This document shows positions 12,015 to 31,927 of a DNA stretch of 64,000 bases, in pieces (position 1 is the stretch's first letter; every line of letters starts with the position of its first letter). The stretch comes from an uncultured bacterium (GTDB lineage Bacteria; Babelota; Babeliae; Babelales; Babelaceae), in assembly GCA_963824495.1 (NCBI GenBank), contig CAWGPQ010000011.1, forward strand, positions 1-64,000, given 5' to 3'. Made by a program: the position numbers and the translations under genes. The notes under the pieces are model-generated. The model worked only from the letters and a program-made list of their open reading frames with translations, ran no database searches and had not been told where the DNA came from.

Positions 12015-14069
12015 TTATACGGGTTTATGTCGTGAAATAAGAAAAGCAGCAATAAGCACTTCTAGCTCAAGGGGTAGTGTGATGCCTGTACGCGAGATAT
12101 TTTCAAATCTTCGCTCAGCACCGTGTTGAAAAAGTTGAGCAATCTCGTAATGTTGATTTCTGTCAGCCAAGCCGCCTGGAGTATAGCCTTCATTATCATG
12201 AGCATACATAGTTGCCCCATGGGCAAGAAGTTCTTGCACTATCTCTACATGCCCCTGAGCAGCAGCCCAATGTAACGCTGTCATGCCCAAGTCATCTCGT
12301 ACATTAACGTCAGCTGGAGCAAGACTGGGCAATAGTTCTCTTACAAGATTAAGGTTGCCAATCACTGCTGCACGTGTTAGCGGTGGGTTACATGTAGCTG
12401 GGAAATTACTTACATGTTTCTCTCGTCCGGGTGGTACCCTAACTCCATATCTTAACAAGAAGGTAGCAATTTTATAGTGACGTTGATCGAGTGCGATGGT
12501 AACAGCAGTATTTCCATCATTGGTAACATGATTTCTATTGGCACCATGAGCTATAAGCAATTCGATTACCTCCCGATGACCTCTAGCTGCAGCCCAAATA
12601 AGAGCAGTATTGCCATAACGGTTAGCATGGTTAATTAAAGCACCATGAGCTAGAAGAAGCTCGACTATGCTTTTATCTCCTCCTATAGCTGCCCATATAA
12701 GAGCAGTATTGCCGACAGAGTTAGCTTCATTAACATTAGCACCACGTGCTAAAAGAATTTTGATAATATTTACATAACCCTCTTGGGCTGCCAGTATAAG
12801 GGCTGTATTGCCCCACCTATTGGCATGGGCAATATTTGCGTTACGTTGTGAGAGTAACTCAACAGCTTGAGCATGACCATTATAAGCTGCTTCAATAAGG
12901 GCGGTATCGCCAATGTTAGTGGTCTCGTCTATGAAAGCACCATTATCAAGAAGAAGCTTAATAACTTCCGTGTTTCCAGCGGCGGCAGCTTCATGAAGGG
13001 CAGTCCAACCATCACTTTCTCTTTTATAATGAGCTTGAGCGCCATAATTTAAGAGGAGCTGAATAATTTCAGTATTGCCCCGCCAGAGGGCAACTATAAG
13101 GGGAGTGTTTTCATTATGAGCGATATAGTTAGCATTAGCACCATGAGTTAGAAGCAACTTGATCACGTCTGTATGTCCATAGAAGATGGCCAAGATAAGG
13201 GCGGTATCACCGTCAATATTGTCCATTTGACCAATATGTGCTTGATGATTATAAAGAAGGAGTTGTGCTAGAGCAGTACGACCATATTGTGCAGCGAAAT
13301 GTAGTGGTGTCTGGTCTTGATTATTAAGGGCGTTTACCTGAGCATTATGAGAAAGTAGAACTTGGGCAATTACTTGGCCATTACGTATTGCTATATGTAA
13401 TGGTGTATTGCCCTCTTCATCTTGAGCGTTGATATTAAAGCGTTGATCTTCAAGTAATAGCTGTACAACTTTACCGTTTCCTTGAGCAACTGCCCAATGT
13501 AGTGGGGTAAACGTTCTTTCAGGTATTGCCAGATTTGGAGAAGCCAAGAGCTGCCTTACTTCTTGAGTATTTCCTAGCATACATGCTCGGGATAGATTAT
13601 CAGTAATCAATGACTTAAGCCCATCCATAGCTTTATTATTGCTGCCAGGGTATACGATAGAGGTATCGCAACCACCATACTGTAAAAGCAAGAGGATAAT
13701 CTCCTTATTGCCACGGTGGAATGCTATGTTAAGTGCTGTAGGTCGGGCTAAGGGAGATTCTGCTTGATTGACGTTGGCGCCGTACTGCAAGAGGAGTCTA
13801 ACTATTTCTATATCTCCACGATTGGCAGCAAAATAAAGAGGACCATGGAGGCCAGACGTGCCCATATAGTTGACGTCTGCACCTTGACTTAGAAGTCTTG
13901 CTATTTCAGCTTTGTTGGTCTTGGGATTGTTTACTGCCGCAAGCAATTGCTTGTTAAGATCGCCTTGACTGCTGCTTGTGTTATCGTTATTGCTATTCAT
14001 GCAATGGCTATATAGGTATACAGCGAGGAAAATAGGTAGTAAGAGTAGCTTTTTATAGATATTTTTCAT
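12015..14069 (-). CDS. Large secreted ankyrin-repeat protein with C-terminal F-box-like motif
   Basis: Signal peptide; many GNTALI/TPLH ankyrin repeats; ends TLPLELEVLIAAFLI. Confidence 0.92.
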   Translation of the reverse strand: MKNIYKKLLLLPIFLAVYLYSHCMNSNNDNTSSSQGDLNKQLLAAVNNPKTNKAEIARLLSQGADVNYMGTSGLHGPLYFAANRGDIEIVRLLLQYGANVNQAESPLARPTALNIAFHRGNKEIILLLLQYGGCDTSIVYPGSNNKAMDGLKSLITDNLSRACMLGNTQEVRQLLASPNLAIPERTFTPLHWAVAQGNGKVVQLLLEDQRFNINAQDEEGNTPLHIAIRNGQVIAQVLLSHNAQVNALNNQDQTPLHFAAQYGRTALAQLLLYNHQAHIGQMDNIDGDTALILAIFYGHTDVIKLLLTHGANANYIAHNENTPLIVALWRGNTEIIQLLLNYGAQAHYKRESDGWTALHEAAAAGNTEVIKLLLDNGAFIDETTNIGDTALIEAAYNGHAQAVELLSQRNANIAHANRWGNTALILAAQEGYVNIIKILLARGANVNEANSVGNTALIWAAIGGDKSIVELLLAHGALINHANRYGNTALIWAAARGHREVIELLIAHGANRNHVTNDGNTAVTIALDQRHYKIATFLLRYGVRVPPGREKHVSNFPATCNPPLTRAAVIGNLNLVRELLPSLAPADVNVRDDLGMTALHWAAAQGHVEIVQELLAHGATMYAHDNEGYTPGGLADRNQHYEIAQLFQHGAERRFENISRTGITLPLELEVLIAAFLISRHKPV

Positions 14070-20772: not shown

Positions 20773-21450
20773 ATGGATGAGTCTTTGAGCCAAAAACGTG
20801 CACGAATACTTAAGGTTTTAGAGCGACTTAAGAAGGTTAAGCGTTACGTACAACAACCTATGATGTCACGTATTATTCATGATTATGGGCGAGATCCATT
20901 TTTAATTCTTATTTCATGCTTATTAAGCTTAAGAGCGCGCGATACCGTAAGCTATGGTGTCAGCAAAAATCTTTTTGCCTATGCTCGAACACCACAAGAG
21001 CTCCTAGCGTTACCACGTCAAAAACTTGAAGAGATTATACACCATGTTGGGTTTCATCGAAAAAAAGCAGAAATACTGCAATCGGTGAGCAAAGAACTTA
21101 TAGAACGATTTAATGGCCATGTGCCCTCAAACGAAGCTGATCTTCTCAGCATTAAGGGTATTGGACCAAAAACGGCAAGCCTCGTGCTTTCTGAGGCATT
21201 TGGTATTCCTGCTATAGCTGTCGATACCCATGTACAGAAACTTGCTCATATATTAGGACTTGTTACCACTGATAATCCTCATCAAACTCAGCGAGAGCTA
21301 GAAAAAATTGTACCCCGTGATCATTGGCAAGAGGTCAATCAGCTTCTTGTTATGTGGGGCCAGAACATATGCATACCTGGCAAATCGGTGAAAGTAGATT
21401 GTGTTACTATTACACAACACCCTTTACTGGGCATTAAAAAAAGCACCTAA
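20773..21450 (+). CDS. nth: Endonuclease III (HhH-GPD glycosylase)
   Basis: PF..LISCLLS, HhH LLSIKGIGPKTA and AVDTHV. Confidence 0.88.
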   Translation: MDESLSQKRARILKVLERLKKVKRYVQQPMMSRIIHDYGRDPFLILISCLLSLRARDTVSYGVSKNLFAYARTPQELLALPRQKLEEIIHHVGFHRKKAEILQSVSKELIERFNGHVPSNEADLLSIKGIGPKTASLVLSEAFGIPAIAVDTHVQKLAHILGLVTTDNPHQTQRELEKIVPRDHWQEVNQLLVMWGQNICIPGKSVKVDCVTITQHPLLGIKKST

Positions 21451-21488: not shown

Positions 21489-21544
21489 CTCTTTTATATC
21501 TTCTTTGCTCGTGTGAGTAATGTATTATTATTATGGGGGTTTTT

Positions 21545-21685
21545 ATGACAATCTATTACAAAAGTTTTCTGGCTCTTGCTCTGAGTATTTTAGCTCTCGG
21601 GGGCTCTTATCCGTATGGGTGTGGTGAGTGTGTGCCTAACTGCAAACCTCCTGCTCCGTGCCAAGAATGTTCGCCAACGTGTTAA
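21545..21685 (+). CDS. 46-aa secreted Cys-rich peptide (6 Cys)
   Basis: Hand translation MTIYYKSFLALALSILALGGSYPYGCGECVPNCKPPAPCQECSPTC; GGGGG SD-like run upstream; the stop overlaps the next ATG (TAATG). Confidence 0.75.
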   Translation: MTIYYKSFLALALSILALGGSYPYGCGECVPNCKPPAPCQECSPTC

Positions 21686-21837
21686 TGAGGGCTATTTTAC
21701 TGCTCATGCTTGTGTGTGGCAGCCCTCGAGCTGACGCTATCGCTTGCTTTAAAGTTGGTGTAGTAAAAGCAGCTAAAAATAATACATGTGTCAGACCACA
21801 CCGTTATCGTGCAGGAGCTCGTGTATGTATAAAATGA
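21685..21837 (+). CDS. 50-aa secreted basic Cys-containing peptide
   Basis: MRAILLLMLVCGSPRADAIACFKVGVVKAAKNNTCVRPHRYRAGARVCIK; coupled at both ends (TAATG, ATGA). Confidence 0.65.
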   Translation: MRAILLLMLVCGSPRADAIACFKVGVVKAAKNNTCVRPHRYRAGARVCIK

Positions 21838-21998
21838 GCTATTATGTGAAAATCGCAGTGTTAGTATTAGGTGGTAATCTTTCACTATATGCTGAATGTG
21901 CTGATGTTTCCTGGAAATATATACCGGGAGGATGTCCACCTACTAAGTCAGGAAGACCGTGTGGCCAGCCTAAGCGTCCTGTTAATCATATAAGATAG
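21834..21998 (+). CDS. 54-aa secreted Cys/Pro-containing peptide
   Basis: MSYYVKIAVLVLGGNLSLYAECADVSWKYIPGGCPPTKSGRPCGQPKRPVNHIR; ATGA overlap with the previous gene. Confidence 0.65.
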   Translation: MSYYVKIAVLVLGGNLSLYAECADVSWKYIPGGCPPTKSGRPCGQPKRPVNHIR

Positions 21999-22046
21999 AA
22001 GAGACACTTTTTCTAAATCGTAAGTGCCTCCTCTAGTATATACTAA

Positions 22047-22862
22047 TTAACGCGCTATTGAGCTTCTGCGAGTTGTTCTGCGTGGCGTTGTTGTTTTACG
22101 TGTTGTGGTTTTGCGTGATGTCACTCTGCGGGTTGGCCTTTCACCACCAAATGGGTGAATGACCGATTCAACCATGTGCCCCAATTTTTCTAGGGCGCTT
22201 TCGGAAGTTCTGCGTCGTGTAACTGTTCGTCCTGTTGCAGCTGTTGTACTACGACGTCGTGGCGTTACTGCCGCTGTTGTACGCGTTCTTCTTCCATCAC
22301 CAGTTATTGTAGCGCGACGAACAGTTGTACGTCGTGGTGTTGCAGTTACACGTGAAGTTGTACGCGTGGTACGTGTTCGAGGTGTTGCTGCAGTAGTACG
22401 GGTGATCGTCTTGCGGGCACGAGTAGTTGTAGCTGCTGGCCTGCCACGAGTACTTGTTGTCTTTCGAGCAGCGGTAGCTGTTCTGCTGATTGCTTTTTTT
22501 GCAGCACCGGCTCGAGTGGTAGTTTTTTTGGTAGCTCTACCGATAGCTCGAGCAGTAGTTTTGCCGGCTGCTGTTGTGCGGGTTCTTCTTCCATCTCCCG
22601 ATACACTGCGTTTGCTTGTGCTTCGGGCTGGTGTTGCTCGTTTTGTTGTGCGTCGTCGTGTGACTGCGGTAGCTGTTGTGCTACGACGTCTACGTGGTGT
22701 CTCTTGTGATGAAGTTGTCGGTTTGTTTTCTTCTAATCCAAGCCCCTGGTTTGTAGATGTTCCTGTTGTCCCTGATTCTGAAGCTGAAAGTGAACTTGGA
22801 TGTTCGTTGTTTGCTGAGCCTCTATAGACATTACCGTTTCTGCTGGCGTTTCCATTTGCCAT
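22047..22862 (-). CDS. Highly basic Arg/Thr-rich low-complexity protein (histone H1/Hc2- or protamine-like)
   Basis: AAGGAG SD before MANGNASRNG (ATG 22862); long tract of TPRR/TTRR/TTAA motifs; GDGRRTRTTAA occurs twice. Confidence 0.8.
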   Translation of the reverse strand: MANGNASRNGNVYRGSANNEHPSSLSASESGTTGTSTNQGLGLEENKPTTSSQETPRRRRSTTATAVTRRRTTKRATPARSTSKRSVSGDGRRTRTTAAGKTTARAIGRATKKTTTRAGAAKKAISRTATAARKTTSTRGRPAATTTRARKTITRTTAATPRTRTTRTTSRVTATPRRTTVRRATITGDGRRTRTTAAVTPRRRSTTAATGRTVTRRRTSESALEKLGHMVESVIHPFGGERPTRRVTSRKTTTRKTTTPRRTTRRSSIAR

Positions 22863-23006
22863 AATACGCTCCTTTTGTAAAGGTTGAGAAATACTATCTA
22901 ATATTAGCGTAACCGAAACTGTTATACACAATCAATAATTTCTATCACTTCACGATAAATTTGTTTTTTTATAGTATACAAAAAACTTAAATTCTTGTGT
23001 GGATAT

Positions 23007-24728
23007 TCAAGGACGTAATGCTTCATGTATACGCTGTGTGAGCTGTTCGCGCGTAAGTCCGTGTTCTTGTTTGCCATCGAGTGTTCTCAGTGTTACGGTT
23101 TCGTTTGCAACTTCACGTGGACCAACAACAAGCATCCATGGAATCCTCTCAAGTTGCGCAGTTTTAATTTGAGCAGAAAGAGGTTCGGAAGAGTGTTCAA
23201 CATCACTACGTAACCCTTCAGCTTTTAAAAAGTTTGCAAGCTGCTGAGCATATTCTTTTTGCGCGTCGGTTATGGTCAAAACTCGTGCTTGCAATGGCGC
23301 AAGCCAGAAGGGAAGCTGCCCTCTATAGTGCTCAAGAAGTATTGCAAAAAATCGTTCAAGGGACCCGTAAATAGCTTGATGAATAATAACCGGACGTGCT
23401 TTTACTCCTTGTGTTGTTACGTATGACAGGTCAAAGTTCTCCGGCTGAAAGAAATCGACTTGAATAGTGCTACACTGCCATGAACGGCCCATAGAATCTT
23501 CAATAACTACTTCAATTTTTGGTCCATAGAAAGCACCTTCACCTTCTTTAATGCTATAGTGCTTTCCCATACGCTTGAGTGCATGAGTAAGTGCTTGTGT
23601 TGCTATCGTCCATTGTTCGTTGCTACCCATGGAGTTGACCGGACGCGTTGCTACCGCATAATGAGCATTATTGAACTTAAACTTGTCGAGCACGTGCTGT
23701 ATCATGGTCAAGCCATTAATTATTTCTCCCTCAAGTTGATCAAGCGTACAGAAAATATGCGAGTCATCTTGAGTAAAAGCACGAACACGTAAAAGCCCAT
23801 GCAAAACACCCGAGAGTTCATGACGATGAACATGACCAAATTCGGCAAGCCTTAAGGGTAAATCGCGATATGAATGTGGTCTATTTGAGTACACCAAAAT
23901 AGCACCCGGACAATTCATGGGTTTTATTGCATATGTTTTATCGTCAATTGTTGAAAAATACATATTATTTTTATAGTACTCATAGTGTCCAGAACGTTTC
24001 CAAAGATCTATACTGAGCATCGTTGGTGTACTGATTTCTTGATAGTTATGATCTACATGCAATGTGCGCATATAGTCTACAAGAAGATTAATAACCTTCT
24101 TACCCTTAGGGTGAAAAAATGGAAATCCCGGACCTTCTTCATGAAAAGAAAACAAATCCAGCTGTTTACCAATTTTACGGTGATCGTAACGAGCTGCTTC
24201 TTCACGCTGCTTCAAGAAAGCTTCAAGTTCTGCATCAGTAAAGAAAGCGGTGCCGCTTATGCGCTGAAGTGCTGGATTATTTTTATCACCACGCCAGTAT
24301 GATCCTGAAATACCTAAAAGCTTAAAGTTTTTCAATAATCCGGTAGAAGCAACATGGCCACCACGACACAAATCGTAAAAATCGCCTTGGCGAGATAGAC
24401 CAACGGTGTCGCCCGGTATTTGGTCAATAAGCTCTAATTTAAAGATATTATCTTTATAGAGTTTACGTGCTTCTTCTTTGCTGATCTCTTCATGCGTTAT
24501 AGGCAGATTTTTATCTGCGAGCACGTGCATACGAGCTTCAATTCTGGATAGATCCTCTTCTTTAACGTGATTAAGGGGTAAAAAATCGTAAAAGAAGCCC
24601 TCATCGGTTGCAGGACCTATAGTAAGAAGCGTCCCGGGGAAAAGCTCACTTACAGCATGAGCTAATAGATGAGCGACAGAGTGACGAAGTATCTTTAAAT
24701 CCTGTGTTTTGTTCATGGTGGCCCTCAT
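23007..24728 (-). CDS. thrS: Threonine--tRNA ligase (short form without N-terminal TGS domain)
   Basis: LRHSVAH, DLCRGGH, RYDHRKIG, KPMNCP, EGAFYGPK and GSLERF. Confidence 0.96.
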   Translation of the reverse strand: MRATMNKTQDLKILRHSVAHLLAHAVSELFPGTLLTIGPATDEGFFYDFLPLNHVKEEDLSRIEARMHVLADKNLPITHEEISKEEARKLYKDNIFKLELIDQIPGDTVGLSRQGDFYDLCRGGHVASTGLLKNFKLLGISGSYWRGDKNNPALQRISGTAFFTDAELEAFLKQREEAARYDHRKIGKQLDLFSFHEEGPGFPFFHPKGKKVINLLVDYMRTLHVDHNYQEISTPTMLSIDLWKRSGHYEYYKNNMYFSTIDDKTYAIKPMNCPGAILVYSNRPHSYRDLPLRLAEFGHVHRHELSGVLHGLLRVRAFTQDDSHIFCTLDQLEGEIINGLTMIQHVLDKFKFNNAHYAVATRPVNSMGSNEQWTIATQALTHALKRMGKHYSIKEGEGAFYGPKIEVVIEDSMGRSWQCSTIQVDFFQPENFDLSYVTTQGVKARPVIIHQAIYGSLERFFAILLEHYRGQLPFWLAPLQARVLTITDAQKEYAQQLANFLKAEGLRSDVEHSSEPLSAQIKTAQLERIPWMLVVGPREVANETVTLRTLDGKQEHGLTREQLTQRIHEALRP

Positions 24729-30400: not shown

Positions 30401-31927
30401 TCAAACTGGGTCAGCTTGAACTTCCTGAATTAGGGCAATTATTGCTTGATTAGAGCGCTGCTCGGCCAGCTGTAATGCATTTAGTCCAGCATGATTGGTC
30501 ATTACTGAAAGTAAACTATGGGATTTCGTAAGCTCTTGTGTAATTTCTTCATTTTCACATACCACAGCCCAATGGAGAAGGGTATTATCATGAGAATCTC
30601 TGTGTCCCATTACCGAAGCAGACTTTTGAGCCAAGTTGTCTGGCGATGAGCTTTTATTAAAATACCGAGTGATAAAGCTCTCTTTAGGCTGTTTTTGTAC
30701 CATGAGCTGTGCTTCGTGTTTAACTAGCTTTTCCAGAAGAGTTTTGGCAAGAACATTATCCCTCACAGCGATTGCTTGAAAGAGATCATCAGGCAAAAGC
30801 TTTTTAAGAGAGTTAGTTTTAGCTGCTAATTCAAAAGGCGTAATCTGTTTATCATTTTTGGCAGTTGCTTGCGCTCCATAATCGAGAAGCATATTCAGGG
30901 CATCTCTATTCCCTCGTACCGCTGCCCAATGAAGCGGTGTATTACGAGATGTCTTATCTTTATAGTTAACTGATCGCGATAAGGCTGGCTTATAATCTTC
31001 AATGATAACATAATGCTCGCCGTTGATTAGGGGATATTTGACTGGAGTAACCCGTTGAGGTCTCAAGTCGGGTTGTTCATGGTATATGCTTAGGATATCT
31101 TTCACGGTATTTTTATAGCGAGCAGCGAGATCTTGATCTTTGCCGAGAATAGATTGATCTGCGAGGATGATAGCTCGATTAAGAGCATTTGGCATGAGGA
31201 TCTCTGCTAATGTTGTCTTTTTTATTTGGTTTTTAGTTTGAAGCTCAAATGGCTCTCGTAATAAGAAATGTGAGGGTGGGCTAAGGGGAAAGCCGCGCTC
31301 TAAGAGCAATCGCGCATTATCAAAATAGGGTTGGGTATACTCAGTTAAAGCACAAATAAGCGCCAACGTTAGATTGCCCTCGTCTTGTTTTGTCCCATGC
31401 TCAAGAAGAATCTCAACGGCCTCCTTATTGCCTATCATAATCGCCAACGTGAGGGGCGTCTCGATTCCGTTGTCAAGACAGGGTACAGCACCAAAGATTT
31501 TTCTTTGAGAAGGTGCTTCATCTTCATAATTACTATCAACCGATTTTGGGGTAGGGGTAAGACATGACCAGTTGTCATCAAAACCTAGAGACGTAACCTT
31601 TTTTTTAGCACGTGGTTTGCTTGTTAAATTAACATTGACGATAGCAGTATCATCCTTACACGCTTGTGTGACATCTTCTGGCTTACGATTAATAATTGCT
31701 TTGAGTAACGCAATAAGCGTTATTTGATCGGCTCCCCGGGGTGATTCTAAAGATACCTCAAAATATGTATCGGGTCCAAGTGCTACATTCGAAGTGATAA
31801 GTGCTTTTATTTCGAGCGCAAGTGCGCGTGGATTACGGTCAAATTGTTCGGGCTCACCCGGTAGTGCTTGACCGTAATAGAGAAGAGTTATTGTTAGTGC
31901 TGGTAGTATCTTGTAATAGATGCCCAT
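30401..31927 (-). CDS. Secreted ankyrin-repeat protein
   Basis: Signal peptide; TPLTLA, TPLHWAAVRG and TLLHWAV ankyrin units; basic patch KPRAKKK. Confidence 0.8.
   Translation of the reverse strand: MGIYYKILPALTITLLYYGQALPGEPEQFDRNPRALALEIKALITSNVALGPDTYFEVSLESPRGADQITLIALLKAIINRKPEDVTQACKDDTAIVNVNLTSKPRAKKKVTSLGFDDNWSCLTPTPKSVDSNYEDEAPSQRKIFGAVPCLDNGIETPLTLAIMIGNKEAVEILLEHGTKQDEGNLTLALICALTEYTQPYFDNARLLLERGFPLSPPSHFLLREPFELQTKNQIKKTTLAEILMPNALNRAIILADQSILGKDQDLAARYKNTVKDILSIYHEQPDLRPQRVTPVKYPLINGEHYVIIEDYKPALSRSVNYKDKTSRNTPLHWAAVRGNRDALNMLLDYGAQATAKNDKQITPFELAAKTNSLKKLLPDDLFQAIAVRDNVLAKTLLEKLVKHEAQLMVQKQPKESFITRYFNKSSSPDNLAQKSASVMGHRDSHDNTLLHWAVVCENEEITQELTKSHSLLSVMTNHAGLNALQLAEQRSNQAIIALIQEVQADPV

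Follow-up and report, generated by a model that had tools for sequence, protein, structure and literature searches.

An arginine/threonine-rich outlier points to a candidate H1-like DNA-packing family in Babelota

In their life cycle, Babelota switch from a replicating mass to a very small free particle and back. Members of the candidate phylum are described as strictly intracellular, with protists as hosts (PMC12172432); Babela alternates amorphous replicating bodies with mature particles (PMC4378268), and a condensed nucleoid is visible in the free particle of the cultured Chromulinavorax (PMC6561590). A gene found in an uncultured member of the phylum may encode a packing protein for such particles. 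Searched by keyword, the main texts of PMC6561590, PMC4776705, PMC4378268 and PMC12172432 name no packing protein and do not contain the word "histone", and our literature search returned no histone-like or packing protein of Babelota; annotations or supplements may carry a histone-like label. The gene lies in a window of 64,000 nucleotides (the whole stretch of contig CAWGPQ010000011.1 analyzed here) of a genome that we call G000, and its product, P0001, is an Arg/Thr-rich, Hc2/H1-like basic protein of 271 aa. A first-pass annotation had read it as a candidate nucleoid-condensing factor, convergent with the chlamydial histone-like proteins and possibly switched by Thr phosphorylation.

The P0001 gene is real. 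Its ORF (22047..22862) lies on the minus strand, running from 22862 to 22047, and plus-strand frame 1 over this stretch is riddled with stops. As the first-pass annotation had noted, the 271-aa frame is preceded by a good Shine-Dalgarno sequence, AAGGAG (22869..22874, minus strand), 6 nt before the ATG, and no signal peptide is visible because the N-terminus lacks a hydrophobic stretch. A promoter-like element, TTGATT-N18-TACGCT (22906..22935, minus strand), stands 73 nt before the ATG and is a consensus match only. Soil-metagenome contigs (four runs from two studies) match the covered parts of the gene with zero differences; the largest piece spans 22036-22684, positions 22685-22860 are uncovered, and the best-matching run is possibly the very sample the genome came from.

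The expressed frame might instead be an antisense Val/Arg/Ala ORF of 222 aa (22159-22827, plus strand), or the locus might be misassembled. The antisense frame is indeed open over 222 codons, and a synonymous-codon score leans slightly its way (0.108 for the sense frame versus 0.162 for the antisense frame). However, an antisense stop-free frame accompanies 89 of the 93 genes of the family described below, which marks it as a shadow ORF. Its ATG has no spaced Shine-Dalgarno sequence, its product has no Pfam match, and both the Shine-Dalgarno sequence of P0001 and the island homology reported below belong to the sense frame; the agreement of the metagenome contigs over the parts they cover argues against misassembly. 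An artefact is therefore very improbable, and antisense expression, which had been named as a possible objection to P0001, is countered. A frameshift origin from a Lys/Ala frame was considered and rejected, the other minus-strand ORF not being Lys/Ala-rich.

P0001 contains 25.1% T, 19.6% R, 12.2% A, 9.2% S and 4.8% K (K+R 24%), with a net charge of +55 and a pI of ~12. Ranked by the most basic 80-aa window, it comes sixth among 2,300 ATG ORFs of G000; the five ORFs above it are shadow-like and lie in a GC-rich block (C11:176-186 kb). The protein, all of it encoded on the minus strand, begins with a non-basic, N/S/G/E-rich part (residues 1-54, 22701..22862, net -2). The basic core follows (residues 55-220, 22203..22700), with a net charge of +48 and an S+T content of 37%; pentamer periodicity is lost there (lag-5 autocorrelation -0.02). 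An amphipathic island (residues 221-240, 22143..22202) with a hydrophobic moment of 0.51 separates the core from the C-terminal tail (residues 241-271, 22050..22142, net +11), which consists of Hc2-type pentamers (two basic plus three small residues) with Thr replacing Ala. The first-pass description of a low-complexity protein was right for the bulk (R, T, A, K and S make up 70.8%) and for the short amphipathic island, which is not the sole break, given the non-basic first 54 residues. Likewise, TPRR (four copies) and RRRST (two copies) recur as described, whereas the supposedly frequent TTRR occurs once. The reported duplication of GDGRRTRTTAA holds: exact copies start at residues 89 (89-99, 22566..22598) and 188 (188-198, 22269..22301). 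The two copies show five base differences, all at third codon positions, and this restriction to silent sites fits selection on the protein, in a test that is biased because the repeat was chosen for its amino-acid identity. AlphaFold, run on the single sequence, gave a model with a mean pLDDT of 45 and low confidence over its whole length; its only two helices, at residues 98-135 and 223-235, are no exception.

Direct homology searches with P0001 were empty. A protein search found it in 0/40 relatives, no homologue appeared among the best 8,000 candidates of 149-475 aa, and neither Pfam nor NCBIfam gave a match. Leads in the ESM Atlas all scored below 0.9 (the best at 0.82, an HC2 cluster at 0.78), and a narrow profile of the Arg/Thr repeats matched 0/260 other genomes of the phylum. 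We therefore turned to synteny. Genes of this kind slip past Pfam and homology searches, and synteny is required to detect them.

The gene is flanked by two conserved anchors, each identified by Pfam: upstream thrS, for threonyl-tRNA synthetase (23007..24728, minus strand), and downstream, in convergent orientation, a gene for an nth-like HhH-GPD DNA glycosylase (20773..21450, plus strand). In 11 of 38 thrS loci of relatives, a Lys/Ala-rich gene (KKAAPKRK type) begins 96-218 nt past the thrS match on the same strand. The 38 loci are those with usable downstream DNA (not counted are one locus that ended at thrS and one relative in which thrS was not matched), and the filter applied to them would miss proteins as dilute as P0001; longer ORFs downstream of thrS were also inspected, and none was Arg/Thr-rich. 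With a profile built from P0001 and the 11 slot proteins, 93 out of 261 genomes of the phylum gave a match; 12 of these had supplied the profile's own sequences. Family genes are thus found in 92 of the 260 genomes other than G000, about a third. We read the ORFs around nearly all profile matches, leaving out one matching genome, and assembled a comparison set of 92 proteins besides P0001, from 90 genomes, in which some ORFs run off the end of their contig. Removed from the set were one duplicate, one ORF that was fused or frameshifted, one containing a run of N, and two loci where no ORF qualified. Among the 92 proteins, 31 are encoded next to thrS and 19 converge on nth (16 do both), as counted within flanks of 1.5-2 kb, and the remaining genes sit by priA or elsewhere. 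The thrS-adjacent genes span 7 families, and a named TM6 genome has a 50-aa version facing nth (L101).

The family proteins show Hc2-type pentamer spacing, with a mean lag-5 autocorrelation of 0.49, and 36/93 carry a short hydrophobic island of some kind. Pfam HC2 matched 6 of 12 aligned members, one of them above the cut-off: the protein of genome G005 scored 42.2 against a cut-off of 40, and stayed below that of NF038052 (35 versus 135). Three Babelota relatives matched NF038053 weakly, at 20-40 bits with a cut-off of 80. Against a large protein set, the family profile found mostly Lys/Ala tails on unrelated proteins (120 matches among 7,999 scored). Because such tracts are common on unrelated proteins, the relation of the family to chlamydial Hc2 may be convergent. 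The family is also patchy (absent from 27 of the 38 thrS loci, present in 93/261 genomes) and thus lends no support to an essential role. Further H1-like genes were seen in passing. G040 encodes a second, 140-aa H1-like protein (L044:1339-1761) with a short folded-looking N-terminus, which may resemble ChaB, and a Lys/Thr/Arg basic tail. G194 has several H1-like genes (L215, G194:C2:95300-102700; L199), two within ~3 kb, and one of its proteins contains twice an amphipathic island that resembles that of P0001 at background level.

Does P0001 belong to this family? Its gene shares the strand of thrS, is separated from the thrS match by 148 nt and converges on nth: this is the slot that Lys/Ala genes occupy in relatives. 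The island of P0001 is identical at 9/16 positions to the C-terminal island of the G005 Lys/Ala protein, ESAMERLSTMVENLNH. This 16-mer comparison scored 45, and the best of 430,563 background windows from G000 ORFs reached 36; the 20-mer island as first delimited scored 37, versus a maximum of 34 in 421,367 windows. The match was strong in one of the 92 family proteins, the next (G194) scoring 34, inside the background range, and a G012 protein ends in a similar but less well matching way. Searching 261 genomes with a three-row island profile added no credible member (the seven weak matches were off-frame or unrelated), and the profile's three matches among 1.84 billion representatives were all spurious repeat proteins. 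The homologue search with the island suggested in the first-pass annotation thus gave one match above all background windows and no further credible members.

Other features also link P0001 to the family. In the P0001 tail the pentamer spacing is kept, with a lag-5 autocorrelation of 0.38 versus the family mean of 0.49. TPRR in P0001 corresponds to APKR (62 proteins) or APRR (5 proteins) in the family; family prolines include 433 in Ala-Pro, and in P0001 six of eight are in Thr-Pro. The net charge of +55 compares with a family median of +48 (IQR 39-59), and P0001 has the family layout: a stand-alone polycation with a charge within +40 to +60, its own Shine-Dalgarno sequence and a TTG..-N18-TA...T element. 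With composition correction off, a family profile built without P0001 ranked P0001 first in G000 (66.2 versus 18.5 bits), and P0001 beat 200/200 core-shuffled copies of itself (46.9 ± 5.2); with HMMER's normal composition correction, the same profile did not detect it. Two other candidate links were rejected. The upstream DNA gave no proof of orthology: the syntenic profile placed it fourth in G000, at an E of 0.11, and the other two profiles left it outside their top six. An N-terminal motif similar to G040 scored no higher than background. The N-terminal 54 aa had no significant match in the family.

Taken together, slot, island and pentamer tail suggest a shift from Lys/Ala to Arg/Thr inside one family, and common descent of P0001 and the Lys/Ala proteins is very probable on these comparisons. 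The first-pass reading of a convergent, Arg-based equivalent of the chlamydial proteins calls for revision, as the same three features make descent from the phylum's own Lys/Ala family most likely. Most likely, P0001 is a diverged member of a Babelota Hc2-like family and no invention from scratch. It is the longest member and the only Arg/Thr-rich one found among the genomes searched, none of which is of the same genus. Its Arg/(Arg+Lys) ratio is 0.80; the 92 family proteins average 0.26 and do not exceed 0.48, in a set biased against Arg-rich members because it was recruited with a Lys/Ala-dominated profile. Long ORFs of G000 overall have a ratio of 0.49, and the Arg shift is thus no proteome-wide trend.

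The G000 genome is 1.33 Mb long, with ~41% GC and a completeness of 96.85%. When an alignment-based scan was made for its nth gene, the top matches that carry a name were labelled Ca. Babeliales, Babeliaceae, TM6 and Dependentiae. Together with an ADP/ATP translocase family match in the genome, these names place G000 in Ca. Babelota, and it is likely a parasite of protists. A single-protein scan with nth gave no match, and a quick thrS tree (29 rows) did not settle where G000 branches. The genome has two HU-family proteins, and no HC2, Hc1 (PF07432) or further family-like gene was found in it besides P0001. GC reaches 0.47-0.64, versus 0.41 elsewhere, at ~170-190 kb of C11 (outside the window) and at the ends of C2, C5, C6 and C14; these stretches probably represent foreign DNA or chimeric ends of contigs, and an additional sigma-factor match falls within them. 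Between nth and P0001, three tandem ORFs of 50, 50 and 54 aa (21533-21998, plus strand) are joined by stop/start overlaps (TAATG, ATGA). All three products start with a hydrophobic stretch and end in a basic or Pro-rich part that contains Cys, and none has a Pfam match; possibly the ORFs encode secreted Cys-rich peptides. Elsewhere in the window, 12015-14069 and 30401-31927 (both minus strand) encode long ankyrin-repeat-like proteins with N-termini that look by eye like signal peptides, as expected for Babelota.

We examined the upstream region for signs of regulation. A stock promoter scan did not include the TTGATT-N18-TACGCT element among its matches. An 18-nt spacer is found in 67 of 76 best promoter-like matches upstream of family genes and in 13 of 22 in other G000 genes, which suggests that the Babelota sigma-70 prefers an 18-nt over a 17-nt spacer. 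G000 has one native match to the sigma-70 family, the second lying inside a GC-rich, probably foreign block, and no sigma-54 was found in it: there is thus no obvious late-stage promoter system. In Chlamydia, sigma-28 drives hctB; a late factor of that type is not evident in G000. The Shine-Dalgarno sequence of P0001 lies inside a predicted 5-bp hairpin (22871-22883, minus strand) with a predicted pairing probability of 0.94. Mean pairing of the Shine-Dalgarno sequence was 0.79 in 34 syntenic relatives, which are not independent, versus 0.46 in 83 control genes of G000. The paired letters vary between loci such as L239, L184, L182 and L177 (CCTT/AAGG, CCCA/TGGG, ATCTC/GAGAT, CTCC/GGAG). The predicted hairpin is a possible lead for translational control of the thrS-linked family, and timing of translation through it, or protein turnover, would be a likelier control of P0001 than a dedicated Thr kinase.

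The reading that we favor, and hold to be probable, is that P0001 is an Arg/Thr-shifted descendant of a thrS-linked Lys/Ala Hc2-like gene and that this predicted-disordered polycation coats and packs the DNA of the particle. An abundant disordered polycation of this kind would bind DNA without sequence preference, its Arg clusters and TPRR motifs could neutralize and bridge DNA backbones, and its island may form a short helix for self-association or partner binding. Total charge would have been preserved but spread over twice the length. P0001 would thus help to pack the free-particle chromosome alongside the two HU-family proteins. The first-pass proposal of a nucleoid-condensing candidate is strengthened by the slot that P0001 shares with Lys/Ala Hc2-like genes and by the condensed nucleoid of the cultured particle. 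A protein of the same ancestry could instead be a constitutive, dispensable nucleoid-associated protein like BpH1 of Bordetella, with no special role in the particle and an Arg/Thr composition reached by near-neutral drift. We consider this less likely, while giving it more weight than any other alternative. The generic sigma-70-like promoter, with the 18-nt spacing of other G000 genes, the single native sigma factor and the patchy distribution all fit it, and BpH1 knockouts grow normally (PMC2848022). Thr-rich intermediates occur in the family (G025, G038, G195 and G207), and single transitions lead from GCN to ACN and from AAA to AGA. However, the Arg/(Arg+Lys) ratio of P0001 lies far beyond the family maximum, with long G000 ORFs overall at 0.49, 38 of its 53 Arg codons are CGN, two steps from AAA, and the 11-mer copies keep their amino acids despite silent changes.

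The target of the polycation may also be a different one: it could act mainly on RNA and ribosomes, silencing translation in the dormant particle, or on host nucleic acids after release. Arg-rich tracts favor RNA binding. Lys/Ala tails are also carried by a wide range of proteins with no relation to the family, DksA-like zinc fingers and adenylate kinases among them, and composition thus does not fix the binding target. An affinity for RNA, and stronger repression of translation than by Hc1, are described for Hc2 (PMC2848022). However, P0001 is a stand-alone gene product with the layout of Hc2, and with no signal peptide visible nothing points to its export toward host targets; we hold such a role to be improbable. 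Somewhat more credible, though still unlikely, is a switch: P0001 would condense DNA until APH-fold or host proline-directed kinases free the protein by phosphorylating Thr in TPRR, as in baculovirus P6.9, in which phosphorylation controls DNA binding (PMC12159748, PMC7881018). The Ser+Thr content of P0001 (34%) exceeds the family maximum of 25%, [ST]Px[RK] occurs at 5/8 prolines of the basic part, an enrichment equalled in 0.075% of 20,000 shuffles, and G000 has four APH-fold phosphotransferase genes (L277-L280, on C12, C14, C5 and C16). However, the genome, at 96.85% completeness, gave no match to PF00069, PF07714, PP2C (PF13672), McsB-type PF00217 or HipA (PF07804), and PF00069 was found in only 4 of 41 genomes searched. 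The closest models for the APH-fold proteins are those of aminoglycoside or small-molecule kinases, with every score below cut-off, and the protein-kinase model PRK11768 gave 19.5 (cut-off 194); one of the four resembles APH(6), at 122 bits with a cut-off of 325. Host kinases should not reach a cytoplasmic protein that has no visible export signal, and TP is explained as the family AP with Ala replaced by Thr. The switch proposed in the first-pass annotation is therefore unsupported, since these kinase and phosphatase families were not found in G000, with a loophole left by the APH-fold proteins. Seven Hanks-type kinase matches were seen in G029, possibly an effector expansion; most Babelota genomes searched have none.

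The preferred reading, a packing protein descended from a Lys/Ala gene, places P0001 beside several known systems. It would be an Arg/Thr outlier exposing a widespread Babelota H1-like family that we did not find described in the literature searched: a candidate DNA-packing family in about a third of the phylum's genomes, and a parallel to chlamydial Hc1 and Hc2 in another phylum. P0001 shares with Hc2 (HctB; PF07382, NF038052) a basic, low-complexity composition, a stand-alone gene and an intracellular bacterial source that has replicative and infectious forms, and both change in length by gain and loss of repeats. Hc2 is characterized by consecutive pentamers with two basic residues each and evenly spaced charge (PMC2848022); the Babelota family and the P0001 tail share these pentamers of two basic and three small residues, whereas the P0001 core does not. 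P0001 also differs from Hc2 in being Arg/Thr-rich rather than Lys/Ala-rich and in having an internal helix island and, at its N-terminus, 54 aa that are not basic. It matches neither PF07382 nor NF038052, and the matches of its family are driven by composition. As P0001 fails both the HC2 profile and the composition tests, we do not file it as Hc2. In Chlamydia, both histone-like proteins bind DNA, and Hc1 is able to compact the nucleoid of E. coli; as a caution, the chlamydial nucleoid still condensed after knockdown of hctA and hctB, although the following infection cycle was impaired, and hctB knockdown by itself had mild effects (PMC13317200). Hc1 (HctA; PF07432) combines a basic disordered DNA-binding region with a small non-basic dimerizing part (PMC2848022), a possible parallel to the P0001 island, which differs in being ~20 aa long, near the C-terminus and unrelated to Hc1 by any test run. 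BpH1 and the Burkholderia-type H1-like proteins (NF038053) have Lys/Ala pentamers, as do the Babelota relatives; P0001 has no NF038053 match. Bordetella makes BpH1 during exponential growth and can do without it (PMC2848022). In its mode of action, P0001 would resemble Hc2 or BpH1.

The Arg-rich composition invites a comparison with sperm protamines. Our search for literature on an arginine-rich, protamine-like bacterial nucleoid protein returned nothing. In its content of Arg, Ser and Thr, P0001 resembles the baculovirus protein P6.9. Like protamines and P6.9, P0001 has Arg clusters interspersed with Ser/Thr, by analogy and not by homology; unlike protamines, it is much longer (271 aa), has a lower charge density (K+R 24%), and no cognate kinase was found for it. 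Arg-rich protamines have been proposed to originate from a basic histone fragment (PMC11607694), and the shift from Lys to Arg in P0001 parallels this proposed origin. More speculatively, P0001 might represent a bacterial replay of the transition from histone H1 to protamine, in which a Lys/Ala pentamer protein became a tighter Arg/Thr packer and the TPRR motifs made by the change from Ala to Thr could let an APH-fold or host kinase unpack the genome after entry. P0001 and its Lys/Ala relatives agree in slot and net charge, and the pair lends itself to asking how a change from Lys to Arg affects DNA compaction, the question that lies behind protamine evolution.
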